From the NCBI GenBank assembly GCA_900696645.1, contig CAADGV010000021.1, positions 122,893-186,892 of the forward strand: a DNA stretch of 64,000 nucleotides, given 5' to 3'. Below are positions 6,921-25,179 of this stretch, one piece after another. The DNA comes from an uncultured Chlorobiota bacterium (GTDB lineage: Bacteria; Bacteroidota; Ignavibacteria; UBA10030; UBA6906). Position numbers and translations under genes: made by a program. The notes beneath the pieces are model-generated. The model saw nothing but the letters and a program-made list of their open reading frames with translations, was not told the DNA's origin and made no database searches. How positions within the stretch are numbered: position 1 is the first letter of the stretch; every line of letters starts with the position of its first letter.

Positions 6921-6999
6921 GATTCCCCTGTATACCGACCGTATCTTTGCACCAGATGTACCTGATCAACATTTCATTAATCATAAATCTGGTGTACTT

Positions 7000-7980
7000 A
7001 TGAAAACACTATTCTTCACCCTTCTCGCGGCAGTACTTGCCGCGGCCACGCTTACCTCCTGCGAGACCGTCGAATGGAGCGAACCCGGAGCGCTGGTTCC
7101 CCTCACGGTTGACCAGGATCCCTCGCTGCCGTCCATTTCGGTGAACGGCACGCAGCTTCATGCCGAAACGTACGGCAATCCGAACGACCCGATGATTGTC
7201 GTGCTGCACGGCGGCCCCGGATCAGATTACCGGAGTCTGCTCAATTGCAGCAAGTTCGCGGCGGACGGCTACTTCGTCGTCTTCTACGATCAACGCGGCT
7301 CGGGATTATCCAAGCGGCACGGTAAGGAAGTCTACACGAAGCAGATATTCATAGACGATCTGAATGCCGTCATCAACTACTATCGGAAACCGGGGCAGAA
7401 GGTGATTCTCATGGGTCTTTCCTGGGGAGCCATGCTGGCAACGGCCTACGTGAATGAGCATCCGGCGGAGATCAGCGGTGTTGTTGTGATGGAGCCGGGA
7501 GGATTCATCTGGCGTGATGCCGAAGCATATATCAAGCGCTGCAGATCGCTTGAACTGTTCGGCGAGACGAGCAACGATTATCTCTTCATCGACCAGATCG
7601 TAACCGGACATGATCACAATGTGCTCGATTACAAGGCGGCCGTGCAAGCTGCTGCCGATTTCGCAAAAGGAAACAAAGTGGGAAATCAGGGCCCGTCGCC
7701 GTTCTGGCGGATCGGTGCGGTGTGCGCATCGGCGTCGTTCGAGTATGTTCGTGCGCATCCGTTCGACTACACGGCGAATCTGCAGCAGTACACGACGCGG
7801 GTTCTGTTCGTGTACAGCGAGCTGAACACGGCATACGGCAAAGCACACGCCGAACACGTCTCCTCGGCATACCCGAATGTGCAGCTTGTTGAAGTGAAGG
7901 GAACGGGACATGAGATTCCGTACTTCGGCTGGGCGGGATTCTATCCTGTTGCCAAAATGTATCTCGATACAATCAGATAA
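7000..7980 (+). CDS. Alpha/beta hydrolase lipoprotein (proline-iminopeptidase-like)
   Basis: Start at ATG 7000 (MKTLFF); lipobox LTSC; HGGPG, YDQRGSG, nucleophile motif GLSWG, catalytic His in GTGHE. Confidence 0.85.
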   Translation: MKTLFFTLLAAVLAAATLTSCETVEWSEPGALVPLTVDQDPSLPSISVNGTQLHAETYGNPNDPMIVVLHGGPGSDYRSLLNCSKFAADGYFVVFYDQRGSGLSKRHGKEVYTKQIFIDDLNAVINYYRKPGQKVILMGLSWGAMLATAYVNEHPAEISGVVVMEPGGFIWRDAEAYIKRCRSLELFGETSNDYLFIDQIVTGHDHNVLDYKAAVQAAADFAKGNKVGNQGPSPFWRIGAVCASASFEYVRAHPFDYTANLQQYTTRVLFVYSELNTAYGKAHAEHVSSAYPNVQLVEVKGTGHEIPYFGWAGFYPVAKMYLDTIR

Positions 7981-8002
7981 TTATTCCAACGGAGAAAACA
8001 TC

Positions 8003-8668
8003 ATGAAAAAGCTATTTGCAGCAACAATCATCCTGCTTGCGGTTGCTGAAGCAGGTTTGTCACAGAATATCAACTGGAGATCGTTAGGCGAGGATCAACG
8101 CAACATCATCCACTTGAATTTTGGATATGACTACGGAGTGACGGCCGAAGCGGGCTACGGCCGGATGTTCACGTTCATCAGGCCGGTTGTCGTGGGAGTG
8201 GATTTTTCTGTTCCGATGGGAGAGAATCTCGTTGACGACTTCAAAGCTAAAATCGGGGCACAGATTGAAGTTGTTGAGATGGGGGGATTTTCGGCCACGC
8301 TGCGTATCTTCTCGATTTTCAGACGATACGAGAATGAGTTGGTGAGAATCGTCAGCTTCGGCTCCGAATTGGGACTTGTGGCGGGATATTACAGTCCGAC
8401 GTGGCACGCCGCCGGCGAATTCGGATTCGACAAATCCATCGTGTCGCATCTGAAACATTCCGACGTCATGCGAAGCTCTTATCCGCGGATACGGAACGGC
8501 TGGTACATTCCGTCGGGGGGGCATTTCTATTACGGCATCCAGGCAGGCAAGACGCTTGGGGAAAGCCTTGACCTTTCGTTCCGGGTAGGCGCAACCGAGG
8601 CACAACATATCGACGAACAGGCCGCTGTACCGTACTATCTTCAATTGGGGTTGGGGATAAGATTCTGA
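8003..8668 (+). CDS. Exported protein, probable small outer-membrane beta-barrel
   Basis: GGAG SD, signal peptide MKKLFAATII.., alternating beta-strand pattern, C-terminal LGIRF. Confidence 0.65.
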   Translation: MKKLFAATIILLAVAEAGLSQNINWRSLGEDQRNIIHLNFGYDYGVTAEAGYGRMFTFIRPVVVGVDFSVPMGENLVDDFKAKIGAQIEVVEMGGFSATLRIFSIFRRYENELVRIVSFGSELGLVAGYYSPTWHAAGEFGFDKSIVSHLKHSDVMRSSYPRIRNGWYIPSGGHFYYGIQAGKTLGESLDLSFRVGATEAQHIDEQAAVPYYLQLGLGIRF

Positions 8669-8681
8669 CCGTGACGATCAG

Positions 8682-8777
8682 ATGAGAAAGTTGATAGAAA
8701 ACTCCTTCTGGATAGCACTCGTGGTCATCAGCGTGTCGCTTTGGCTTGCGGCGGTATGGCTGATGTTCCACGACTGA
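8682..8777 (+). CDS. Putative 31-aa single-TM small protein
   Basis: MRKLIENSFWIALVVISVSLWLAAVWLMFHD*, starting 13 nt after the upstream stop; below the ORF-track length cutoff. Confidence 0.4.
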   Translation: MRKLIENSFWIALVVISVSLWLAAVWLMFHD

Positions 8778-10022: not shown

Positions 10023-10742
10023 ATGAAGGGAATACAGTTATTGTTGGTTGCGTGGATTGTTCTTTTGCAACTTAGTTGCGCCGACAAAGCAGTCACGTCG
10101 AAAGAGCCCGAACAGATTTTGCATGATTGTTCCGATCCGCCCGTTGTACGTACGGGCGAAGCGACGTACTACACGTGGGCAAACGGCGGCGGCAATTGCA
10201 TGTTCGACCCGACGCCGAACGACTTGATGGTGGCGGCAATGAATCACGTTGATTATGCAGGTTCGGGCGTTTGCGGTTCGAGCGTGAGAATAACAGGTCC
10301 AAGCGGCGAAGTAACAGTCCGCATTGTGGATCAGTGCGGGGATTGTCCTGTCGGCAACATTGACTTAAGCCCGGCAGCATTCTCGCGCATCGCCGATATT
10401 TCGCTTGGGCGCGTGCCGATCACATGGCGCTTCGTCCCGACCGCTGTTCAGGGAAACATCATCTACCATTTCAAAGATGGCAGCAATCAATGGTGGACAG
10501 CGGTGCAAATCCGCAACCATCGCTATCCGATCGCGCGGGTTGAGTACAGAACGCAGCAGGGAACGTTCACGTCGGTGAACCGGACAGACTACAACTATTT
10601 CGTTGAACCGGGCGGAATGGGTCCGGGGCCGTACACGTTTCGTGTAACCGACATCTACGGTCATGTGTTGGTAGATAGCAATGTTGTACACCGCGAAAAT
10701 CAGAACGTGGCGGGAAGCGGGCAGTTTCCGTTGTGTAATTAG
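10023..10742 (+). CDS. Expansin EXLX1/YoaJ-like lipoprotein 1
   Basis: Lipobox-like QLSC; DPBB domain (GEATYY, GGNC, IVDQC, IDLSPAAF); CBM63 domain (KDGSNQWWTAVQ, RTDYNYF). Confidence 0.9.
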   Translation: MKGIQLLLVAWIVLLQLSCADKAVTSKEPEQILHDCSDPPVVRTGEATYYTWANGGGNCMFDPTPNDLMVAAMNHVDYAGSGVCGSSVRITGPSGEVTVRIVDQCGDCPVGNIDLSPAAFSRIADISLGRVPITWRFVPTAVQGNIIYHFKDGSNQWWTAVQIRNHRYPIARVEYRTQQGTFTSVNRTDYNYFVEPGGMGPGPYTFRVTDIYGHVLVDSNVVHRENQNVAGSGQFPLCN

Positions 10743-10857: not shown

Positions 10858-11670
10858 ATGAAGGAATCGGCAAGAGTGATGATGACGGCAATGAAGGTTG
10901 CGGCAGTTCTTTTTCTGATTGTGATTTCCGGTTGTACCGACGCAACAGACGCGGTGAAGCCGCAAACGGCCGTCGAGGATGATGTGAATCAAGAAGTCTT
11001 CATTGAGGCGGGCGATTCTCTTTCTTTGATTGATGCGTTGGGGAGAAGATGTGACACGCCGTTGCGGACGGGCTTCGCTACATACTACATAGAAGCGAAC
11101 GGCGGCGGCAATTGCCTGTTCGACCCTACCCCGAACGATTTGCTGGTTGGCGCAATGAACTCGATTGATTACGCCAACTCGGATATCTGCGGCGCAACGG
11201 TTATGGTGTGGGGCCCGAAGGGCAGTGTGGCAGTGCGCATCGTTGACCAGTGCGGCGGGTGTTCGGAAGGTTCCATTGATTTGAGTCCGCTCGCGTTCTC
11301 ACGCATTGCCGATCTTCCGCAAGGTATTGTGCCTATCAAATGGAAACTAATTGCCGCGCGGGTACAGGGAAATATTCTCTACCATTTTAAAGACGGCAGC
11401 AACCAGTGGTGGACTGCGGTACAAGTTCGCAATCACCGCTACCCGATAGCGCGGCTGGAATATTTCTCCGGCGGGAGTTGGATAAACGTGCAGCGGCTCA
11501 GTTACAACTATTTTGTCGAATCAAACGGGATGGGCCCCGGTCCGTACACATTCCGCGTTACCGATCTGTTCGGCCACGTTCTGGTGGATAACGGCATTCC
11601 GCATATCGAAAACGGAAGCGTTCCGGGTGCACGACAATTTCCGTTGTGCACTGTTGTGAAGGAGTTCTGA
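10858..11670 (+). CDS. Expansin EXLX1/YoaJ-like lipoprotein 2
   Basis: Lipobox ISGC; same DPBB and CBM63 motifs (IDLSPLAF, SNQWWTAVQ, YNYF); paralog of 10023..10742. Confidence 0.9.
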   Translation: MKESARVMMTAMKVAAVLFLIVISGCTDATDAVKPQTAVEDDVNQEVFIEAGDSLSLIDALGRRCDTPLRTGFATYYIEANGGGNCLFDPTPNDLLVGAMNSIDYANSDICGATVMVWGPKGSVAVRIVDQCGGCSEGSIDLSPLAFSRIADLPQGIVPIKWKLIAARVQGNILYHFKDGSNQWWTAVQVRNHRYPIARLEYFSGGSWINVQRLSYNYFVESNGMGPGPYTFRVTDLFGHVLVDNGIPHIENGSVPGARQFPLCTVVKEF

Positions 11671-11717: not shown

Positions 11718-12650
11718 ATGCGATCAGTAGACTGCTGGGCTGTGTTGTGTGCTTGCATGACGGCCATTCTGCTCACTTCATGTGCTTCACAATCTGTGTA
11801 CATGCAAAATCTCACCTCCGACGGCACGATGGTCAAGCCGCCTCTGTTCATGACAGACGATACGAAAGAGGGTGATGTCCGGGTTGTTCCGAAGGTGTCT
11901 GTCGCGGCACGGCAGACTCTCGTCGGCAGGGCACACGAACATTCCAACGTTAACGACAGCGGCGTGTTTCAGGTGGATACAGTAATGCAGAACGGCACAA
12001 CGCAATACTTCGAGAGGGCGGGCGTGAACAAGAATTCTTTTCAGGGGAGGAATTTCCGCTGGGAGCCGCCGAGGGTAACAGCGTCGGTGGATTTCGAGTA
12101 CTTTGTGACGAAGACATTTTCCGTAGTTGCGGGGGCGAATTACTCATCGGGCAGTTCGCGGAGTTTCCTCGGCGCGGCGGGGGGAGTCGGCTTTTCGTTC
12201 GAAAGCAAGAATCTCGGCTTGCGTATCGATCTCGGCGCGCATTGGAGTTCGGTTGCGTACACCGTTGATTACGTCGTCGCGACGAAACTGTTCGGCGAGT
12301 CGGATCAGCGGGTTGAGTTTTTCCGCGAGTCGGGGAAATCATCCTACCTGAATTCGTACGGCGCCTTCACGCTCAACACAAAATTCAAGTCGTCGCCGAT
12401 TCAGGGATTTCTGCAGCTCGGCATCAACCGTCAGACGCTGGTTGAGATCGAGCGGCGGACATCGTTCGTCGGCAACTCGGTTGTGCTGCAATCTGCATCG
12501 TTCTTTATTGTGACGCCGGGGGTATTTTTCAACGTTGCGCCAGGGACAAGAATCGTTGCCGGGATACATTTGGCCGATGAGACCGAGTTGCTTGAAGCCG
12601 ATCCCGGAGTGTTGCTCTCGCCGTTTCTGCAAATAGAAATCGGGCTTTGA
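11718..12650 (+). CDS. Hypothetical lipoprotein with beta-barrel-like C-terminal region
   Basis: Probable start MRSVDCW; lipobox LTSC; amphipathic beta-strands; ends QIEIGL. Confidence 0.6.
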   Translation: MRSVDCWAVLCACMTAILLTSCASQSVYMQNLTSDGTMVKPPLFMTDDTKEGDVRVVPKVSVAARQTLVGRAHEHSNVNDSGVFQVDTVMQNGTTQYFERAGVNKNSFQGRNFRWEPPRVTASVDFEYFVTKTFSVVAGANYSSGSSRSFLGAAGGVGFSFESKNLGLRIDLGAHWSSVAYTVDYVVATKLFGESDQRVEFFRESGKSSYLNSYGAFTLNTKFKSSPIQGFLQLGINRQTLVEIERRTSFVGNSVVLQSASFFIVTPGVFFNVAPGTRIVAGIHLADETELLEADPGVLLSPFLQIEIGL

Positions 12651-12656
12651 CCCGTT

Positions 12657-13481
12657 CTATGCGCGAACCTGTCGAACCAGCCACGCAACACCCAAAACGG
12701 CTGATGCAACGGCCACCGCAGTGGGCGAAGTGGGAAAGTCGAGCTTGAACGCAAGAAACAACCCGACGATTGGTGAGAGCATCCCAAGAAGAACTGCAGT
12801 AAGAAAAATCCACTTTACCCGCTTTGCAATCAACATTGCGGCAACCGGCGGAACAACAAGAAAGCCGAAGACAAACACATCTCCCACCATGTGTGTCGCC
12901 ACCGAAATGACAACGGCGGCGATAATGTAGAATAGCATTTCCCAGAGGCCTGTGTTGTATCCCTGCGTGCCCGCCGTCTCCGCATCAAATGAGATGTACG
13001 AGAATTCTTTGAAGAAGAGAAGATGGACCGCCATCGTCACAACAAACACTCCTGCCATCAGATAGAACAACTCCGGCGTGACAAAAAGAATATCGCCGCG
13101 CAGAAGGTTTTCAATCTCCGAAGCTTCAACCTTCGGCGCTTTCTGCATAACGAGAATGCGTGCTGCAATCGAAAACACAAACACGAAGCCGAGAACGGCG
13201 TCCTTCGGGATGTGTTTTCCCGTGAGGAGTGTTGAGAGGATGATGACAGATGCAATCGTTACTACAAGCGACCCGATCGTGTGGGGGAGGGCGAACACCG
13301 GGAGAAACGTCAGAGCGAGACCCAGCACCGACACTTGTGTCAGAACAGCTCCCAAAAACACGACACGCTTTGCGACGATATACACCCCGAGGAACGCGCA
13401 GAGCGTCCCGACAAGCATGCTGCCGTACAGGGCATACGGAAACTCCCTGACAACGGTCAGGACAATGTCATGCGTTTCCAT
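12657..13481 (-). CDS. Zn/Mn ABC transporter permease (ZnuB/ABC-3 family)
   Basis: LGVYIVAKRVVFLG, LLRGDIL, SFDAETA, LVVPPVAA; multi-TM. Confidence 0.9.
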   Translation of the reverse strand: METHDIVLTVVREFPYALYGSMLVGTLCAFLGVYIVAKRVVFLGAVLTQVSVLGLALTFLPVFALPHTIGSLVVTIASVIILSTLLTGKHIPKDAVLGFVFVFSIAARILVMQKAPKVEASEIENLLRGDILFVTPELFYLMAGVFVVTMAVHLLFFKEFSYISFDAETAGTQGYNTGLWEMLFYIIAAVVISVATHMVGDVFVFGFLVVPPVAAMLIAKRVKWIFLTAVLLGMLSPIVGLFLAFKLDFPTSPTAVAVASAVLGVAWLVRQVRA

Positions 13482-14238
13482 TGTCTCCCCCCGCGCGAAT
13501 TATCTTGGCTCCACCCACGTTCGAGACAGTTACCGGCATTTCGTACAATGCAGAGAGGTTTTCCGCGGTAAGAATTTCGTCGACATCTCCCACCTGAAAA
13601 GCCGACCGCTCGACGAGCGCGATGCGCTTCACGTAGTTCGCAACATCATCCAATAGATGACTGACCATCAGCACCGTGAGCTTGTCGTGCTCATGCAAGT
13701 GGCGGACAAGCTGGAGAATGGAAAGTCGTGACGAGAGATCCATGCCGTTCGTCGGCTCGTCGAGAATGAGAACCTCCGGCTCGGAAGCAAGCGCACGGGC
13801 GATAAGCGTGCGCTGCTTCTGTCCGCCGGAAAGATCTTTGAACGCAACATGCTTCAGCTCGCTGATATCGACATGCTGAAGACTTTCATGCACAATTCTT
13901 CTATCATGTTGCGAAACCGATTTCAGCAAACCAACCTGACGGTAACGTCCCATCGCAACCACTTCTTCCACAGTGTATGGCATGACATAGTCTACCGTAT
14001 CGCGTTGCGGCACGTAGCCAAACCGGACGGGCTTCCCGTTGTTGTTCCGGACAATAACTTCCCCACTCATCGGCTTCAGTGTTCCGAGTATTGCGCGCAA
14101 GAGTGTTGTTTTGCCCGCCCCGTTCGGTCCAACAAGCCCGAAGAAATCGCCGTCGAGAATCGAGAACGATATGTCCTTCAGAACAATCTTCGGACCGTAA
14201 CCCAGCGTCGCATTGCGAAATTGAATCAGTGGTTGCAT
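13468..14238 (-). CDS. Zn/Mn ABC transporter ATPase (ZnuC-like)
   Basis: GPNGAGKTT, GYVPQ, LSGGQKQR, LDEPT, VSH. Confidence 0.92.
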   Translation of the reverse strand: MQPLIQFRNATLGYGPKIVLKDISFSILDGDFFGLVGPNGAGKTTLLRAILGTLKPMSGEVIVRNNNGKPVRFGYVPQRDTVDYVMPYTVEEVVAMGRYRQVGLLKSVSQHDRRIVHESLQHVDISELKHVAFKDLSGGQKQRTLIARALASEPEVLILDEPTNGMDLSSRLSILQLVRHLHEHDKLTVLMVSHLLDDVANYVKRIALVERSAFQVGDVDEILTAENLSALYEMPVTVSNVGGAKIIRAGGDNGNA

Positions 14239-14247
14239 TGCAGGTCC

Positions 14248-15132
14248 TTATTTCAATGCCTCAACGAGTGTACGAATATTGTAGTCCATCATCGAAATGT
14301 AATCCCTCGCTTCATCAACTCCTCCCACGGAAGTCGGAAGCCGGAGCACCGTGGCCGAGGTTGAGCGCGCAATTTGCTGCGGGGCGCTTGCATCATAGAA
14401 CGGCTCGACAACAATCGCCTTGATGTTTCCCGCCCTCACTTTTTGGATGAGTTGCGCCGTGTGGCCTGGCGACGGCTGTATGCCGGGCTTCGGCTCAACC
14501 TGATCAACGACGTCGAGGCCCAACCAAGCTGCAAAATACGACCAGCTTTTGTGAAAGGTGATGAGTTTTGCGCCTTTGAGCGGCCTCATCGCGTCTTCCC
14601 ACTCCGTAATCTTCGTATCAAGCTTTTTCAGAAATGCCTCAGCGTTTGTGCGAAAGAACTGCTCATCGGCGGGAGAGGATTTGATGAGAGACGCGACGAT
14701 CTCGTTGACGATGGCTCGAATATTTCGCGGATCAAGCCAGTAATGCGGATTACCGTACCGATGAACATCTCCCTGGCTTGCGTCAACTTTGTCGGGCACT
14801 TCCAGCTTGTGGATGGATTTTGAAAGATTGACAACGTCGAGGCGGGCATTGCGTGAGCCGTCAATAATCTGCGGGGCCCACATCTCCAACTCCATTCCAA
14901 TCATGAGAAACACGTCGGCCGATTTCAGCTTCATCATGTAGCTCGGTTTCACTTCCACAAAATGCGGGTTCTGATCTCCGCGAACGATGTGATCAACCGT
15001 AACTTTGTCGCCTCCAATCTGCCGGGCAAAATCGGCAAGATCGGGAAGCGTGGTGACGACGCGGACTGTTGCGTGTGCGACAATCGGCAGGGTCATCATA
15101 GCAAGAACTGCAAGTATCTTCTTCATGTTCAT
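14248..15132 (-). CDS. Metal ABC substrate-binding protein (ZnuA/TroA family)
   Basis: Start MNMKKIL with signal peptide; His ligands in NPHF, GNPHYWLDP and TFHKSW; EPKPGIQPS. Confidence 0.9.
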   Translation of the reverse strand: MNMKKILAVLAMMTLPIVAHATVRVVTTLPDLADFARQIGGDKVTVDHIVRGDQNPHFVEVKPSYMMKLKSADVFLMIGMELEMWAPQIIDGSRNARLDVVNLSKSIHKLEVPDKVDASQGDVHRYGNPHYWLDPRNIRAIVNEIVASLIKSSPADEQFFRTNAEAFLKKLDTKITEWEDAMRPLKGAKLITFHKSWSYFAAWLGLDVVDQVEPKPGIQPSPGHTAQLIQKVRAGNIKAIVVEPFYDASAPQQIARSTSATVLRLPTSVGGVDEARDYISMMDYNIRTLVEALK

Positions 15133-15145
15133 AGTCCTTTCACTG

Positions 15146-16276
15146 TTAGAAGGGATGCGCTTTATGCGGACCCAGCGAGAACAGCACCTGTAATGCAATC
15201 GAGTTTACCGACTGACTTACTCCGGCAATGTCCGTTCTGGTGTTTTGATACTGCAAACGAAGGCCCAGTGTTTCTTCAACAGGATAGTAACCGAAGAACA
15301 CGGCGATAGCCCGCGCTTTGTCATCATCGTCGTATGGTGATTGGCTCCAATCGAAGCGGGCACCGACGCTGTACGTTTTCAAGAACTGATAGTCGGCAAA
15401 GATGTACATGCCGGACGTTTTAATACTGCGTCGTTCCGGATTGCCGGCATCATCAACAAACTGGTTGAACTCGCGGTCTTGACGGCCTTTTCTGGTGTTG
15501 AACAGATATTCTCCCTGCAGCGTGAGCGACGTGTACATGTCGGGTTTATACTTGTATTTGAAATCGAAATTCCAATACCAGAACCGGTCGCGGTTGTACG
15601 GATCGTGAATGCCGGTGTACATGCTGATGCCGGTTTCAAGATCGCTGTAATCGGTCAGCGTGAAGAAACTCATCACGCGTCCCGACGTTGCATAGGTCGG
15701 CTTGGCTTCAGTGGTATCCTCAATTCCGGTCGCTTCGCCGATCGATGTTCCTCTGAGCAGATCGAAGGTGAGTTTAGTGTAGATGTTGCCGGTAGGAAGC
15801 AATGTGCTGACCGACAGGCCGAGATCGTTCAGTCCCTCGTCTCCGAAGAACCGTTCCTGCGAAAGGGGTTGTGTCACAAATGCCCATTGATGCGGGTGCA
15901 TCATGTTGATCTTGCCAAAGTCAACCCGGTACTTTCCCAGCCGTACGTTCAGGTCAAGCGGCAAGCCGCGGAATACTGTTGCGTATGCTTCTTCCAGACT
16001 GAAATCAACATGATCACCGTTGTGACTGTGCATCGCCAGGACAACATCGGCGCGTGAAAACGGATTGAGATACGATGACACGACAAGCTCGAGTTCCTGG
16101 AAACGGAAATCGGGGCGGCTGAATTCGCGAACGCCGTCTGCCAAGCGTTCTCCATCATGTGAATCAATGATGAAACGCGGGATAACACTGATATCGGGAT
16201 TAAGAGATGTTTGAGCATTGCCGGAAACGAACACAAGCGCGAGCAATGCCCCTGCACAAATTGCATGACGAAGCAT
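15146..16276 (-). CDS. Outer-membrane beta-barrel associated with metal uptake (plug-less, His-rich)
   Basis: Signal peptide, LNPDISVI, ELEL, EEAY, FGKINMMHPHQW, C-terminal GPHKAHPF; directly upstream of the SBP gene. Confidence 0.75.
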   Translation of the reverse strand: MLRHAICAGALLALVFVSGNAQTSLNPDISVIPRFIIDSHDGERLADGVREFSRPDFRFQELELVVSSYLNPFSRADVVLAMHSHNGDHVDFSLEEAYATVFRGLPLDLNVRLGKYRVDFGKINMMHPHQWAFVTQPLSQERFFGDEGLNDLGLSVSTLLPTGNIYTKLTFDLLRGTSIGEATGIEDTTEAKPTYATSGRVMSFFTLTDYSDLETGISMYTGIHDPYNRDRFWYWNFDFKYKYKPDMYTSLTLQGEYLFNTRKGRQDREFNQFVDDAGNPERRSIKTSGMYIFADYQFLKTYSVGARFDWSQSPYDDDDKARAIAVFFGYYPVEETLGLRLQYQNTRTDIAGVSQSVNSIALQVLFSLGPHKAHPF

Positions 16277-16280
16277 AAAA

Positions 16281-16333
16281 TCCTCCTTATTGGATTACTT
16301 ACGATAATTGGAAGCGTAAAAGAACAGGAGAAG
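16281..16333 (-). promoter_or_regulatory. SD-sequestering hairpin between the leader ORF and the OM barrel gene
   Basis: In the mRNA, UUCUCCU just after the leader stop can pair with the SD AGGAGGA (16287-16281); inner stem UUACG/CGUAA. Confidence 0.55.
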
Positions 16334-16681
16334 TTATGCGAAAGGCGGGCCGCGCTTGCCGGAATAAACTACATCTGTTTCAACTGTTTGCCCGGTATGC
16401 GAAGGGAATATGGCAATGGAAACAACGGCAGCATCAAATGTGAATGAGCGGCTGACATCAGCGGAAAAACGTTGCGCAAACTGTGAGCAGGCAAGGCAAT
16501 GACGCGCCTGATCGAGCGGGACGTGAATTTCCCTGGCGCCGCAGTCGTGGCTGGAGAGAACCGGCTCCGAATGCAGCGGCAGGTTTGCGTGATCGTGGTG
16601 GGCCAGATCGACCAGCGTGTTGCCAAGGAGGTACCCCAGAATGGCAAAAACGGAGAACGTATGTCGTAAGAACAAAGCCAT
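16334..16681 (-). CDS. DUF2946-like (CruR/CutF-type) leader protein with CxxC and C-terminal RGPP
   Basis: Hydrophobic N-terminus, HHDH, HCLAC, ends YSGKRGPPFA; start 16681 supported by the promoter position. Confidence 0.75.
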   Translation of the reverse strand: MALFLRHTFSVFAILGYLLGNTLVDLAHHDHANLPLHSEPVLSSHDCGAREIHVPLDQARHCLACSQFAQRFSADVSRSFTFDAAVVSIAIFPSHTGQTVETDVVYSGKRGPPFA

Positions 16682-16690
16682 TGCGTGTAG

Positions 16691-16719
16691 AATATATGCG
16701 AAGCGGGGGCGAGAAACAA
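16691..16719 (-). promoter_or_regulatory. Promoter of the metal-uptake operon
   Basis: TTGTTT-N17-TATATT, ending 9 nt before ATG 16681. Confidence 0.55.
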
Positions 16720-16887
16720 GCAACGTCTACAATCGTATCTTCACTCCGCCGTTCATCACAAACCCGTCCACGGGGGCAAAGAGGTCGTTGAAAATCGGAT
16801 TCGTGATTGTGCCTGTGTAAATGCTGCCGTATCGTGTCAGACACACAAATGGTTCGATCTGAGCTATCATGGGCAGGGGCTCAGTCC

Positions 16888-19800
16888 CTACTCGGTTTTT
16901 GCTGTCTTCCGCCTTGACTCAATCATGCTGTATATCAACGGCAGCGCAAACATTGTCAACAATGTTGACGTTATCAACCCCCCTATGACAACCGTTGCCA
17001 ACGGTCGCTGCACTTCAGCACCAGTCCCATGAGAAAGTGCCATGGGAATGAAACCGAGGCTTGCAACGAGTGCGGTCATTAGCACGGGACGTAACCGGTC
17101 TGATGCGCCTTTGATGACTGCAAACATCAGCTCGTGACCTTCCTTCAGAAGTTGGTTGATGTGGGAGATCATCACCACGCCATTGAGGACTGCGACTCCA
17201 AACAGTGCGATGAATCCGATCGAAGCAGACACACTCAGGGGAAGGTCACGGATGAACAGGGCTACCACTCCTCCGCATAACGCAAAGGGGAGATTCAGCA
17301 AGATGAGAAGCGAGTGGCGCAAGTTTCCGAAGGTCGTAAACAACAGGACAAAGATGATGAAAATGGACAATGGGACAACAACCAGCAGGCGTTGTGTGGC
17401 ACTCTCTTGATGCTCGAATTGACCGCCCCAGGTAATGTAGTACCCGGCAGGCAAGCTCACTGAGCGCTCAATACGCTGCTTTGCTTCTGCGACAAAAGTC
17501 CCGATGTCGGTTCCACGAACATTGCATTCGACGACTATCCTTCGCTGCCCGAACTCACGGCTCACCTGCACCGGCCCTTCCTCAGCAACGATGTGGGCGA
17601 CTTGTTTCAAGGGTATTGTTCCACCGCTCGGCAAGCTGACAAGGGTATTCTCGATACCCTGGATGTCTCCTCGAACACTCTCAGGATAACGGACAAGCAC
17701 CCCATATCTTGCCTGGCCTTCGATGACTTCTGTGGCAATCTTCCCGCCGATAGCGGTCTCAATGACACGCTGAACATCGGCGACATTCAGGGCGTAGCGT
17801 GCGATGGCGGCACGGTCAACATAGATGTTCAGATATGTTTGTCCTGCAACCTGCTCAGTCGATACATCGGCTGCTCCGGGAACGGTACGAACGATGTCGG
17901 CGATCTGATCCGCCTTCTCTTTGAGGATTGTGAGATCGTCCCCGAAAAGCTTGATGGCAATATCAGACTTAACTCCGGTGACAAGCTCGTCAACACGCAT
18001 GGCGATTGGCTGTGTGACATTGTAGTTCACGCCCGGAATGTGCTCCAGTTCTTTGACCATCTTATTCACAAGCTCTTCTTTGGTTTTCGCGGTCTTCCAT
18101 TCCGATTTGGGTTTGAGGGTCACATAAATGTCGCTCAGGTTTACTCCCATGGGATCCGTGGCTATGTCTGGACGACCCAAACGACCTACCACGAATTCCA
18201 CTTCCGGAAACTGCATAATGATCTGCTGGATCTTCTTCTCCATCTCAATGGATTCTGTCAGCGAGATGCTCGGCATGCGGATCGGCTGAATGAGAATGGA
18301 ACCTTCATCTAACTCGGGAATGAACTCTGTCCCGAGGCTCGGAACCAAAGCAAACGAGCCAACAAGAACCGCAAGGGCAATAGTGAATGTGATTGTTTTA
18401 CGCCTGACCGCTCTTTCGAGCAACGGCGTGTAAACCAAACGAATCCAGTGAATCAGCCTCGGTTCCTTGTGCGTTTTCTTTTCTCGCAACAGCAGACTGC
18501 TGACAACGGGAACGAATGTCAGCGTAAGTAACAGCGATCCTATCAATGCAAGCCCCACCGTCAACGCCATCGGCTTGAACATCTTTCCTTCGATGCCCTC
18601 CAGCGTTAGAATGGGGATGTACACCGCTATAATGATGAGAATGCCAAAGAGTATTGGGCGCCCCACTTCTTTTGCTGCGCTGGAGATCAATTGCAGTTTG
18701 GTCTCGTCGGCTTCCTTGTGTGTCAGTCTGCGAGTGAAGTTCTCCACCATCACCACAGAGCCGTCAACGATCATCCCAAAGTCAATTGCGCCAAGGCTCA
18801 TCAGGTTGGCTGTCAATCCAAGCCATTCCATCCCGATAAATGCAAACAGCATCGAAAGCGGGATAGTTGATGCGACGATGAGAGCAGCCCGAATGTCGCC
18901 AAGGAAAAGAAGCAGTACGGCAATTACAAGAAGTCCGCCTTCAACGAGGTTCGTGCGAACGGTGGTGATGGTCTTTTGAACAAGATCAGTTTGATCGTAG
19001 TACGGATGGATCTTGACATGCGGAGGAAGAGACTTGTTGATCTCTTCGACTTTTGCCTTGACACGCTGAATGACCTTCTGACTGTTCTCCCCTCTGAGCA
19101 TCATTACAATGGCAGCACTCACCTCGCCACGACCCTGCATGACAACTGCTCCCTGCCGGTTTTCAGGTCCGATTGTCACCCGTGCAACGTTCCTGATGTA
19201 TATAGGGGTGCCATGATCGTTCTTGACAACAATGTTCTCGAAGTCCTGCTCTTTGCTTGCAAGACCAATCCCCCGAATAATGTATTGCTCTGAGGCATGT
19301 TCGAGGTAGTTGCCGCCTGCGACGGAATTGCTTTTCTCCACAGCCTCAAACACCTCGTCGAGAGTAAGGTTGTAGCTCAACAGCTTGTTGGGATCCACGA
19401 TGATATGATACTGCTTCACAAGTCCGCCGAAGCTGTTCACTTCCGTTACGCCGGGCACTGTGCGCAGTTGTGGCTTGATGATCCAGTCCTGGATTGAGCG
19501 AAGTCCCATGAGGTCAAGACTATCGCTTTCAAGGAAGTACTGGTAGATTTCTCCCATCCCCGAAGCGATTGGCCCCATCTCCGGTTCGGGAACCGTCGGA
19601 GGGAGAGACTGCCTTGCTTTCTGGAGTCGTTCAAGAACAAGTTGCCGAGCGAAATAGATATCCACGCCATCTTCAAACACAACCGTTATCACGCTCAACC
19701 CATACTTGGAAATTGACCTGACTTCGGTGAGGCGAGGAAGGCCGTTCATTGCCACCTCGATGGGGAAGGTGACAAGCTTCTCCACCTCGACGGGGGAAAG

Positions 19801-22457: not shown

Positions 22458-22784
22458 TTACGCAGTTATGGGAGGGCGAAACACCGACTTCTTTGGCGGT
22501 GAAGGAACCGTGAAAGAGAAAGAGGCGAAAGGCGGTTCAGCAGCCTGCGCGTAGCTGGGGGTGGCCGTTCTATGCACGACCGCAGGAACGTGACAGACAC
22601 AAGAGCAAGCAGAAGAGCCCATAGTAGATGGAGACTTTGTTGAGGAATCATGATTCCCCGACAGTGAACACACTAACGAGCTGCAACTATTCTCTGTTGT
22701 CCCATTCAGACAATCGGTATCGCCACACCAAACGATTGAGGCTGTAAAGCAAAAAAAGATAAGTATTTGGCTGAAAGTCATCAT
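22458..22784 (-). CDS. Cys-rich exported leader protein ending in FRPP, upstream of czcCBA
   Basis: Hydrophobic N-terminus, 8 Cys including CSCVCH, Pro-rich tail PSPPKKSVFRPPITA. Confidence 0.7.
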   Translation of the reverse strand: MMTFSQILIFFCFTASIVWCGDTDCLNGTTENSCSSLVCSLSGNHDSSTKSPSTMGSSACSCVCHVPAVVHRTATPSYAQAAEPPFASFSFTVPSPPKKSVFRPPITA

Positions 22785-22795
22785 AAGACTAAAGG

Positions 22796-22824
22796 AATAT
22801 ATCTAATCGGCATCGCAATTCCAA
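22796..22824 (-). promoter_or_regulatory. Promoter of the efflux operon
   Basis: TTGGAA-N17-TATATT, ending 11 nt before ATG 22784. Confidence 0.55.
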
Positions 22825-23055: not shown

Positions 23056-25179
23056 ATGTTCGTTCCGCGTGTGCGGGTTATTCTGTTGTGCCTCTCTATG
23101 CTCTCGGACGTTTATGCGACTGGAAATGACATGAATGCCACGCAACCCCCGATGGCGGAAATCAAACCGCATGTGTTGGAGAAACACGGCCATATCCGCA
23201 CCGACAATTACTACTGGCTGCGCGAGCGTGACAATCCGCAGGTTCTTGAATATCTCAACGCTGAAAACCGCTACACCGATGCCGTGATGGCTCCGGTGAA
23301 GCAATTTGAGCAGAAGCTGTTCGATGAAATGAAGGCACGCATCAAGCAGACCGACCTTTCTGTTCCATACAAACTGGATGACTACTTCTACTACACTAAA
23401 TACGAGAGCGGTAAAGAATACCCCATCTACTGCCGGAAACGGGGCTCACTTGATGCGCTGGAAGAAGTGATGCTCGATGGAAACGAGATGGCGAAAGGCC
23501 ACGGCTTCTTCAACATAGGAAGTACGGCAGTCAGTTTTCAGCAGGATATCGTTGCTTTCACTGTTGACACTGTTGGACGCCGCTTCTATACAATCCGTTT
23601 CAAGGATCTCAGATCCGGTGAAATCATGCCGGACGAGATACGCTCATCTACCGCAAATATCGCATGGGCAAACGACAACACAACTCTTTTTTATACGAAG
23701 CAGGATCCGGCCACCCTGCGGGCCCATAGAGTGTACCGTCATACGTTAGGTACAGACGCATCGAAGGACACTCTCGTTTATGAGGAAGAGGATAGCACGT
23801 TCAGTTGCAGCGTCTTCCGGACGAAATCCAAACAATACATAATGATTGCTTCACGGCAGACCCTCAGTACGGAGTATCGCTACTGTGATGCCAACACGCC
23901 GGACGGCCAGTTCAGAATCATTATGTCCAGAATGGATAATCACGAGTACTCCGTTGAACATTTCGAGAGCAACTTTTACATCCGGACGAATTACAAGGCA
24001 AAGAATTTCCGTCTGATGCGAACACCGGTATTGGACACGCGCATGCTTTCCTGGAGAGATGTGATTGTTCACAGGCGAGGTACGCTGCTGGAAGGATTCG
24101 CGATCTTCAAGGACTTTCTTGTTGTTACAGAGCGAAAGAACGGTCTGCGCCAGATACGCGTTCTTCCCTGGAGCGGCGGCGAGCATTACATCCAGTTCGA
24201 CGAGAGTGTCTACGCTGTAGGTGTCGGAATCAACCCGGATTTTGACACACATCTGCTTCGCTACAATTACCAATCATTGATCACTCCCAACTCCGTTGTT
24301 GAGTATGACATGGCGAGGCGGACGAGGACGGTGTTGAAGCAGGATGAAGTGTTGGGGGGCTACAATCCCGACAGGTACCAAACGGAGCGTGTGTTTGCAA
24401 AAGCGCCTGACGGACTCCTTGTCCCGATCTCGCTTGTCTATAAAAAGGGGATGAGAAGAAACGCAGACAATCCGTTGGTGCTGTATGGCTACGGCTCGTA
24501 CGGCATAAGCACGGACGCGACGTTCGCATCCAACCGGTTGAGTCTGCTCGACCGCGGGTTCATCTATGCTATCGCGCATGTTCGCGGGGGGCAGGAGCTT
24601 GGGCGCGAGTGGTATGAAGACGGAAAGATGCTGAAGAAAAAGAACACCTTCACCGACTTCATTGCGTGTGCCGAATTTCTCATTCAAGAACGGTATACAA
24701 CTCCCCGGAAACTCTTTGCACAGGGAGGAAGTGCCGGCGGCCTGTTGATGGGCGCGGTGATGAATATGGCGCCCAACTTCTTCAAGGGGATTGTAGCAAC
24801 CGTTCCCTTTGTTGATGTCGTCACGACGATGCTTGACGAGACGATTCCGCTGACAACATCGGAGTATGACGAATGGGGAAATCCGAACGAAAAAGAACAC
24901 TACGACTACATGCTTTCATATTCCCCCTATGATAACGTTGAGGCAAAGAACTATCCCAACCTGTTGGTGATGACGGGGTTGCATGACTCGCAGGTACAAT
25001 ACTGGGAGCCGGCCAAATGGGTTGCAAAACTCCGTGCTCTGAAAACCGACAACAATCTGCTTCTCCTCAAGACAAACATGGAAGCCGGACACGGCGGCTC
25101 CTCCGGCAGGTTTCGCAGGCTCCGCGAAACTGCGCTGCAATACGCGTTCATATTGCATCTCGTCGGGATAACAAGATAG
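23056..25179 (+). CDS. ptrB: Oligopeptidase B (S9A)
   Basis: DNYYWLRE, YGYGSYG, catalytic GGSAGG, HDSQV, AGHGG; start ATG 23056 after GAGGAG. Confidence 0.93.
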   Translation: MFVPRVRVILLCLSMLSDVYATGNDMNATQPPMAEIKPHVLEKHGHIRTDNYYWLRERDNPQVLEYLNAENRYTDAVMAPVKQFEQKLFDEMKARIKQTDLSVPYKLDDYFYYTKYESGKEYPIYCRKRGSLDALEEVMLDGNEMAKGHGFFNIGSTAVSFQQDIVAFTVDTVGRRFYTIRFKDLRSGEIMPDEIRSSTANIAWANDNTTLFYTKQDPATLRAHRVYRHTLGTDASKDTLVYEEEDSTFSCSVFRTKSKQYIMIASRQTLSTEYRYCDANTPDGQFRIIMSRMDNHEYSVEHFESNFYIRTNYKAKNFRLMRTPVLDTRMLSWRDVIVHRRGTLLEGFAIFKDFLVVTERKNGLRQIRVLPWSGGEHYIQFDESVYAVGVGINPDFDTHLLRYNYQSLITPNSVVEYDMARRTRTVLKQDEVLGGYNPDRYQTERVFAKAPDGLLVPISLVYKKGMRRNADNPLVLYGYGSYGISTDATFASNRLSLLDRGFIYAIAHVRGGQELGREWYEDGKMLKKKNTFTDFIACAEFLIQERYTTPRKLFAQGGSAGGLLMGAVMNMAPNFFKGIVATVPFVDVVTTMLDETIPLTTSEYDEWGNPNEKEHYDYMLSYSPYDNVEAKNYPNLLVMTGLHDSQVQYWEPAKWVAKLRALKTDNNLLLLKTNMEAGHGGSSGRFRRLRETALQYAFILHLVGITR

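Follow-up and report, generated by a model that had tools for sequence, protein, structure and literature searches.

A conserved small gene ending in RGPP ahead of a porin-like barrel and a ZnuA-type importer: a candidate metal-sensing arrest leader of the CruR/CutF class

The experimental cases of metal-sensing arrest leaders are copper cases only: CruR, which acts on a TonB-dependent transporter, and CutF, which acts on a multicopper oxidase. Here we compare these systems with a small minus-strand gene in a 64,000-nt stretch of contig CAADGV010000021.1 (assembly GCA_900696645.1, an uncultured Chlorobiota bacterium); this whole stretch is called the window below, and all positions refer to it. 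The gene, hereafter the leader, ends close behind an RGPP motif and is followed by genes for a porin-like outer-membrane barrel and a ZnuA-type ATP-binding cassette (ABC) importer. The leader is a real, conserved gene. It displays the Cys motif, the spacing and the C-terminal arrest motif that are the hallmarks of CruR and CutF and, as far as its sequence can tell, most likely works as they do. The class of mechanism is already known, and the ZnuA-type importer would most likely be its new kind of transporter.

According to the excerpts of the reports drawn on here, CruR of Bordetella pertussis (Bp2923, a DUF2946 protein) carries a CXXC motif and an RAPP motif three residues from its end; the 45 intervening residues are kept within 1-2, and an export signal is found in >95% of the members (PMC9426467, Roy et al.). 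In the model given there, arrest at RAPP keeps the operon of the TonB-dependent transporter on, and copper relieves the arrest, leading to Rho termination (PMC9426467). RAPP and RGPP are described as the most robust arrest cores, refractory to EF-P (PMC12992588, Fujiwara et al.). Proteomes avoid both motifs, but small secretory proteins encoded upstream of metal genes are enriched in them at the C-terminus; in arrested CruR, the P and A sites hold its two Pro codons (PMC12992588). CutF of Rhodobacter capsulatus stalls longer with copper bound, and the stall melts an anti-Shine-Dalgarno (anti-SD) stem-loop ahead of cutO; 5,334 CutF-like proteins are listed in the same work (Öztürk et al., PMC9973294; bioRxiv 10.1101/2025.02.05.636593). 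Both CutF and CopL act in cis only (PMC9973294). The neighbours named in the portions of the surveys of such leaders used here are mainly copper-related, TonB-related, of the resistance-nodulation-division (RND) efflux type, or related to Ni/Co, and other metals have already been suggested. No ZnuA-type or ABC-importer context and no SGKRGPP sequence was found in the literature and supplements searched; the family may already sit unnamed in published neighbour lists.

The window leader resembles CruR (PMC9426467, in excerpt) in its apparent place as the small first gene of a metal-uptake operon and in its putative N-terminal export signal. The CXXC motif lies about 45 residues before R-x-P-P, itself 2-3 residues from the stop, an outer-membrane uptake protein is encoded downstream, and the logic proposed is the same, with arrest meaning ON and metal acting as the releasing signal. 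However, the leader carries RGPP instead of RAPP, together with an additional conserved H-x-C-G-x-x-E-x-H block, and has no threshold match to Pfam DUF2946. Its spacer to the next gene measures 57 nt (162 nt for CruR), with a strong Shine-Dalgarno (SD) sequence buried in a hairpin. The target also differs, being a porin-like barrel with a ZnuA-type ABC importer rather than a TonB-dependent transporter, as does the lineage (Ignavibacteria/Bacteroidota-like versus Proteobacteria) and probably the metal, zinc versus copper.

Like CutF, as described in the same excerpts, the leader is small and probably exported, has its Cys motif about 45 residues ahead of the C-terminal proline motif and is separated from the next gene by an anti-SD stem-loop; CutF acts in cis, as is proposed for the leader. 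In contrast to the leader with its CxxC, RGPP and importer target, CutF combines CxxxC with an EF-P-sensitive PPP, and copper switches ON a detoxifying oxidase. Since the target here is an importer, a sign opposite to that of CutF is expected. Moreover, a ribosome arrested on Pro-Pro would not reach the window anti-SD, unlike in CutF.

ApdA, ApdP, ApcA and SecM (PMC10987492, PMC12992588, PMC10951233) are likewise small secretory or membrane proteins with an R-(A/G)-P-P core close to the C-terminus, and in SecM-type systems the downstream gene is controlled via an SD-sequestering structure. These proteins monitor Sec or YidC and precede sec or yidC genes, whereas the window leader precedes metal transporters and carries a conserved His/Cys site. 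No secA, secDF or yidC follows the leader; the genes behind it are those for the barrel and the metal ABC importer. The latter recalls the Zur-regulated ZnuABC and AztABCD systems in having the same three transporter components, with AztC, AztA and AztB as best NCBIfam models. All these scores are below cut-off, and the window adds an outer-membrane barrel and an arrest-type leader.

The leader, its family and the uptake operon

The leader and its promoter comprise the following features.
16334..16681, minus strand: leader gene, encoding an N-terminal hydrophobic helix, a putative His/Cys sensor region, a variable spacer, SGKRGPP and a 2-residue tail
16343..16354, minus strand: codons CGC GGC CCG CCU of the RGPP arrest motif (residues 110-113), from sequence and motif conservation
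16487..16549, minus strand: putative metal-sensing residues H45-x-C47-G48-x-x-E51-x-H53 and C62-L-A-C65, from an alignment of 110 sequences
16598..16678, minus strand: predicted membrane anchor or signal helix, residues 2-28, from predicted structure and hydropathy
16691..16719, minus strand: promoter-like element, TTGTTT (16719-16714), a 17-nt spacer and TATATT (16696-16691), ending 9 nt before the leader ATG

The 115-residue leader reads from ATG 16681 to TAA 16336-16334 and ends in ...SGKRGPPFA*. An earlier note on this DNA had described a C-terminus of KRGPPFA*, a CLAC motif 44 residues ahead of RGPP, and the extra His motifs HHDH and HDC; minus-strand reading confirms all of them, with CLAC at residues 62-65 (44 residues between C65 and R110), HHDH at residues 28-31 and HDC at residues 45-47. 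The sequence statements made for the span 16277..16719 are equally sound, although its upper bound sits in the -35-like box, outside the open reading frame (ORF). A TTG start at 16723, giving a 129-residue frame, was rejected: the extension would contain the conserved promoter, and ATG 16681 is therefore taken as the start. Among the 42,641 residues of all window stop-to-stop frames of at least 100 residues, the RGPP of the leader is the only R[AG]PP; with its retention in the relatives described below, the protein motif is clearly more than a chance occurrence. An Rfam search of 15900-17000 on both strands had no match at E <= 1.

AlphaFold2 models the leader with only moderate confidence (mean pLDDT 71.8), giving a well-predicted helix over residues 2-28 (pLDDT >90) and mostly coil afterwards. 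R6 stands on the N side of this helix and H28-H-D-H follows on its C side; the Kyte-Doolittle 19-residue maximum (1.62) is found at residue 1.

The protein belongs to a sizeable family. A word-index search gave nine relatives with 38-95% identity, all ending in SGKRGPP plus 2-4 variable residues, and a profile search of 1.84 billion representatives returned 148 proteins at E <= 1e-3, 73 of them at <= 1e-10. R[GAS]PP is present in 146 of the 148 (130 RGPP, 15 RAPP, 1 RSPP), the other two being C-terminally truncated fragments. After the two prolines, a tail of 1-6 residues remains in 142/146 relatives, compared with two residues in the window leader. The CxxC motif lies 42-46 residues before the Arg in 142/146 as well, at exactly 44 in 98, and is absent in four. 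In an alignment of 110 sequences, picked by eye and leaving out mostly long gene calls, fragments and members lacking CxxC, residues H28, H45, C47, G48, E51 and H53 are at least 90% conserved, and C62 and C65 are invariant. The mean frequency of the commonest residue is 0.46 in the putative sensor part (28-71), 0.21 in the spacer (72-106) and 0.77 in SGKRGPP. This pattern of a spacer with fixed length and free sequence between the metal motif and the arrest motif fits a molecular ruler. The reading of the leader as a candidate arrest leader of the CruR/CutF kind is supported across the family, which keeps the hydrophobic helix, CxxC, the spacer of 44 +/- 2, R[GA]PP and the tail of 1-6 residues.

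Codon choice at the motif speaks for a meaningful RNA structure. In the window and six related loci described below, RGPP is encoded with CGC for Arg in 7/7, GGU for Gly in 6/7 and CCU for the first Pro in 5/7; the other invariant Arg and one invariant Gly use four codons each across the same seven loci.

A search against DUF2946, which the earlier note had suggested for the leader, returned no PF11162 match for the window protein even at E <= 1, placing it outside the Pfam model. Weak sub-threshold PF11162 matches occur in 12/110 relatives (best E 9.4e-4), so that no other family is matched more often. The nearest ESM Atlas cluster is labelled 'DUF2946 domain-containing protein' (score 0.97, 187 shared features), with PF11162 in 36% of its members. 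NCBIfam offered nothing usable for the leader, and the family profile matched no PDB sequence at E <= 1. From these similarities, we read the leader family as a remote, unannotated branch of the DUF2946 superfamily, outside the Pfam model.

Downstream of the leader, the window encodes the following.
15146..16276, minus strand: 376-residue outer-membrane beta-barrel, porin-like, with a signal-like N-terminus, an HPHQW motif and a C-terminal GPHKAHPF
14248..15132, minus strand: ZnuA/TroA-type (cluster A-I) metal substrate-binding protein (Pfam ZnuA, 217.8 bits)
13468..14238, minus strand: ABC transporter ATPase (Pfam ABC_tran, 104.4 bits; best NCBIfam model AztA, 190 bits, below the 220 cut-off)
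12657..13481, minus strand: ABC-3 family permease (Pfam ABC-3, 142.1 bits; best NCBIfam model AztB, 118 bits, below the 280 cut-off)
12641..12654, minus strand: terminator-like hairpin and T-run right after the permease stop, the likely operon end, from a consensus scan only

Most likely, the leader heads a five-gene uptake operon composed of the leader, the porin-like barrel, the ZnuA-type binding protein, the ATPase and the permease. The cluster A-I importer set (ZnuA-fold binding protein, ABC-3 permease and ATPase) is complete in this one operon. For the binding protein, the best NCBIfam model is AztC, with 144 bits, below the 350 cut-off. The best PDB match is Synechocystis ZnuA (chains 2ov1/1pq4), where His residues align with the His of PHF, PHYW and FHKSW; these three are putative Zn ligands. 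Binding proteins of the Mn type have Glu at the third site position. The barrel gives a weak Pfam match to BBP2 (19.4 bits, below the 26.2 cut-off), and its Atlas neighbours include porin clusters. Its structure model, of low confidence (pLDDT 51.9), has 12 strands, and Foldseek matches it to generic outer-membrane barrels only (TM <= 0.42).

A genome scan with a 10-sequence alignment detected six related loci (L001-L006), from Ignavibacteria, Chitinophagales and Bacteroidota metagenome-assembled genomes, with leaders 44-51% identical to that of the window. In L001-L005 the leader is followed by a protein of 375-398 residues, with 71-76% identity to the window barrel in L002-L005 and 32% in L001, and the ZnuA and ABC genes come next. 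In L006 the contig ends 115 codons into the ORF after the leader. As the leader heads a conserved barrel and ZnuA/ABC operon, the extension to a ZnuABC-type importer put forward in the earlier note is real at the level of gene context; the part of that claim in which a stalled ribosome melts the anti-SD is not supported as worded, as detailed in the next section.

The barrel is better conserved than the leader (71-76% versus about 50% identity to L002-L005). Its His-containing motifs HPHQW and GPHKAHPF are kept and may line a metal-selective channel. In L003, the ZnuA-type binding protein and the ABC ATPase form one 581-residue ORF (6974-8719, plus strand), which could be a genuine fusion or could result from an assembly or frameshift error.

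The genes upstream of the leader vary among the loci (YfhO-like, divergent prolyl oligopeptidase, HD protein), whereas the promoter is shared. By eye, a promoter-like TTGTTTCTC, a spacer and TATATT are found 4-9 nt ahead of the start codon in 7/7 loci, with the common pattern TTG(T/C)(T/A)T(C/T)TC - N14-17 - TAT(A/T)(T/G)T - N4-9 - ATG/GTG; in the alignment the register is kept in 6/7 loci (the window and 5/6 related loci). A simple promoter scan did not list this element, whose -35 box agrees at 3/6 positions only. Its location directly before the start indicates that the leader is probably the first gene and that its mRNA is leaderless or nearly so, which accounts for the leader having no SD of its own. 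No Zur-box-like palindrome was seen by eye in the conserved promoter, and no operator search was run.

The hairpin over the barrel start

Between the leader and the barrel, the RNA can fold into a hairpin with these parts.
16326..16339, minus strand: 5' arms, GCAUAA (16339-16334, an Ala codon plus the stop) and the anti-SD CUUCUCCU (16333-16326), in the minimum free energy (MFE) fold with pairing probabilities of 0.92-1.0
16299..16319, minus strand: inner stem UUACG/CGUAA at the hairpin top, from sequence and MFE fold
16273..16287, minus strand: 3' arms, SD AGGAGGA (16287-16281) and UUAUGC (16278-16273, with the barrel AUG), in the MFE fold

The pairings described in the earlier note are all present: the anti-SD CUUCUCCU begins at the first base after the leader stop, UUCUCCU pairs with the SD over 7 bp with one G-U, and UUACG (16319-16315) and CGUAA (16303-16299) form the inner stem. 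The MFE fold of 16350-16260 (91 nt, -15.6 kcal/mol) contains both helices, and the SD is predicted to be closed, in agreement with the occlusion proposed there. It additionally displays an outer helix absent from that description, in which GCAUAA pairs with the UUAUGC that holds the barrel AUG. The hairpin stands out from chance only weakly: for the fold as a whole z = -1.72, and 14/200 shuffles fold equally well.

The start of the barrel stands out within the window. Its SD, AAGGAGGA, placed 4 nt before ATG 16276, is the longest among 39 window ORFs of at least 200 residues. Use of SD sequences by these ORFs is moderate, with a 5-mer SD in 8/39 and one of at least 4 nt in 18/39, as estimated with crude ATG-only starts. 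Among the eight window genes with a 5-mer SD the one of the barrel is the most occluded, with a probability of being unpaired, P(unpaired), of 0.07 versus 0.33-0.70. Values below 0.1 for both SD and AUG are found for only the barrel and a czcC-like gene among 18 window genes. Across the loci, the GGAGG core is predicted to be paired in 6/6 that have an SD (P(unpaired) 0.00-0.11 in free mRNA).

The spacers between the leader and the next gene measure 46-77 nt, and the intergenic regions of the seven loci do not align. The window and L002 nevertheless share a two-helix design, with the SD partner just after the stop. In L005 the partner is formed by the Gly-Pro-Pro codons GGU CCU CCU, and in L003, L004 and L006 by codons for Ser-Ser or Ile-Leu that lie 13-22 nt before the P site. 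Gly-Pro-Pro is encoded by GGU CCU CC(U/C) in 5/7 loci (L002-L006), so that the arrest site itself contains an anti-SD, UCCUCC; in the window the codons are GGC CCG CCU, with the anti-SD placed right after the stop instead. These two arrangements offer a natural comparison that could separate an RNA-switch output from an anti-termination output.

An arrested ribosome covers approximately -13 to +15 from the first P-site base. With Pro112 and Pro113 in the P and A sites, the window anti-SD starts 16-17 nt 3' of that base, and the idea of the earlier note that the stalled ribosome melts it does not fit this geometry. Masking -13 to +15 leaves the window SD core paired (P(unpaired) 0.02 before and 0.02 after), and the SD of L002 likewise stays closed. 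Masking a terminating ribosome opens the window core (0.26-0.53). In a cut-off model, the arrested ribosome frees the AUG-containing outer helix of the window, P(unpaired) of the AUG rising from 0.03 to 0.39. The arrested-ribosome mask opens the SD in L005 (0.39-0.51), where the partner consists of the Pro-Pro codons (0 to +4), and does so partly in L004, L003 and L006.

Proposed mechanism and its alternatives

We lean towards reading the leader as a cis-acting, metal-sensing arrest leader of the CruR/CutF class that applies CruR logic to an uptake operon. In the proposed sequence of events, transcription would start at the operon's own promoter and leave almost no 5' untranslated region, and the N-terminal helix of the leader would direct the nascent chain to the membrane. 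Peptide-bond formation would stall at Pro112/Pro113 of RGPP, arrest being the default state. At this point CxxC would be 47-50 residues from the peptidyl-transferase centre, and so would have just emerged, with H-x-C...E-x-H already outside. When the metal, most likely zinc, is scarce, the arrest would persist, and the ribosome parked at the leader end would keep the barrel start open and/or Rho off the G-poor spacer, allowing the operon to be expressed. Metal bound to the His/Cys site would compact the chain and exert a pull that releases the arrest, letting the leader be completed; the hairpin would then shut over the SD and AUG and expression would drop, as in CruR logic.

The motifs with their spacing and conservation, the synteny, the promoter and the predicted pairing of SD and AUG come from the analysis itself; that the ribosome arrests at all, which metal is sensed, which way the operon responds and how the signal acts on it are what we infer. 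Zinc is our best guess given the binding protein and the His/Cys/Glu ligand set, with Mn, Fe, Cu and Cd also possible.

A number of points weigh against this reading. The evidence for it is computational throughout, and its DNA context covers seven loci, the window and L001-L006. The direction of the response and the metal rest on the importer context, and Cys-rich sites also fit Cu(I) or Cd. The window leader has no Pfam DUF2946 match, and 0/25 profile matches carry a precomputed Pfam domain or a name beyond 'hypothetical protein'. A scan revealed no minus-strand terminator between czcA, the last gene of an efflux operon upstream, and the leader, so that read-through from that operon is possible. 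At the RNA level, the paired bases of the window anti-SD are +17 to +21 relative to the first P-site base, at or beyond the ribosome edge; the position of the SD partner shifts between loci, and in L001 no SD precedes the gene after the leader. In a test with 200 shuffles per locus of the upstream part, preserving dinucleotide content, pairing of the SD core was matched or beaten by 45/200 shuffles in the window, 94/200 in L002, 49/200 in L003 and 23/200 in L006. The case for an RNA switch is weak.

The shuffle test bears directly on a rival in which the output is of the CruR type only: arrest would shield the transcript from Rho-dependent termination, and the SD and anti-SD would pair simply because the spacer, rich in pyrimidines and poor in G, stands opposite a purine-rich SD. 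Composition-matched shuffles leave the SD almost equally paired (mean P(unpaired) 0.10-0.15), and the drifting anti-SD and the SD-less L001 agree with a by-product. The spacers are G-poor in 7/7 loci (29 G in 298 nt), which would also suit a Rho-dependent output, and CruR itself operates via Rho (PMC9426467, in excerpt). Nonetheless, we consider it unlikely that Rho is all there is. Pairing beats the shuffles in L004 (5/200) and L005 (1/200), and the GGU CCU used for Gly-Pro in 5/7 loci turns arrest-site codons into an anti-SD. In addition, spacers of 46-77 nt are short for Rho loading, unless the untranslated barrel start serves, in comparison with the 162 nt given for cruR-bfrG in the excerpt of PMC9973294.

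Alternatively, the leader might follow CutF logic, with metal prolonging the arrest and thereby either opening the hairpin, which would make the operon metal-induced, or starving the stop codon of ribosomes, which would turn the importer off. CutF itself works in the first way, copper prolonging the stall that melts the stem-loop over the cutO SD (PMC9973294; bioRxiv 10.1101/2025.02.05.636593, as far as the excerpts go). The masks in the window point in the second direction, with the SD core opened by a terminating ribosome (0.26-0.53) but not by an arrested one (0.02), and disulfides of the kind proposed for CutF could form among the three conserved Cys. Yet an importer induced by its own metal makes no physiological sense, and under the second version L005 and L004, whose anti-SD is covered or abutted by the arrested ribosome, would have to use the reverse RNA logic, leaving orthologous operons wired oppositely. 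RGPP and RAPP are also reported to be intrinsically strong and refractory to EF-P, unlike the PPP of CutF (PMC12992588, in excerpt), which fits default arrest. On balance, we judge CutF logic improbable.

We give similarly little credit to the possibility that the small protein functions in uptake itself rather than in regulation, as a membrane-anchored periplasmic metal-binding or chaperone subunit, with RGPP acting at most as a pause and the hairpin serving ordinary translational coupling. Besides RGPP, the most conserved block is indeed a His/Cys/Glu cluster suited to metal binding, the leader gene is always co-located with transporter genes, and the opening of the window SD by a terminating ribosome is what simple coupling would give. 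Such a role, however, leaves unexplained why an invariant R-x-P-P lies 1-6 residues from the stop in 142/146 relatives and why a spacer with almost no sequence conservation (0.21) is held to 42-46 residues. Nor does it sit well with a motif that is strongly avoided in proteomes (PMC12992588, in excerpt) and unique among the window frames, or with a model that is mostly coil past the anchor helix.

Membership of the leader in the upstream czcCBA operon was rejected, as the czc genes are absent from the six related loci, whose varying upstream genes place that operon outside the leader unit, and the leader has its own conserved promoter.

An arrest leader with CruR logic can be taken further, to a nascent-chain zinc sensor that we put forward tentatively and regard as possible but doubtful. 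A ZnuABC-type importer and an outer-membrane channel would be under leader arrest that is released by periplasmic metal, the Gly-Pro-Pro codons would double as the anti-SD in several relatives, and a second leader, ending in FRPP and preceding czcCBA (see below), would leave both uptake and efflux set by co-translational sensors. If this is true, arrest site and RNA switch would be the same nucleotides in several relatives (GGU CCU CCN), and uptake and efflux of the same metal class would both be controlled co-translationally rather than by Zur-type or two-component regulators. Zinc uptake is normally attributed to Zur. The leader family, with its 148 representative clusters, brings the same ruler architecture to a porin and a ZnuA-type ABC importer, and provides a test case for arrest as a general means of periplasmic metal sensing, zinc included.

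The efflux operon and other neighbouring genes

Upstream of the leader, on the same strand, lies an RND efflux operon of the CzcC-CzcB-CzcA type. A second small Cys-rich ORF (22458-22784, minus strand; 108 residues, ending in ...KKSVFRPPITA*) is found 93 nt upstream of its czcC-like gene. A promoter-like TTGGAA-17-TATATT (22796-22824, minus strand) ends 11 nt before the ATG of this ORF. It has no Pfam match, and its sole homologue (42% identity) keeps WCGDTDC, SLVC, CSCVCHV and a C-terminal VFRPPIxA*. The 3' region of the ORF folds with z = -2.57, and the SD and AUG of the czcC-like gene are both predicted to be occluded. From its sequence, the ORF resembles a CutF-like leader serving the efflux operon. 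The possibility that it is a paralogue of the main leader was rejected, with an hhalign probability of 0.5% and no profile similarity between the two.

A prolyl oligopeptidase gene stands directly upstream of the leader, in divergent orientation, in L003-L005. In the window, the czcCBA block and the second small ORF stand between the leader and the gene of this type (23056-25179, plus strand), indicating that the efflux block was either inserted in the window or lost in L003-L005. Further along, 10023-10742 and 10858-11670 (both plus strand) are adjacent paralogous ORFs with DPBB_1 (lytic transglycosylase-like) domains, unrelated to the leader.

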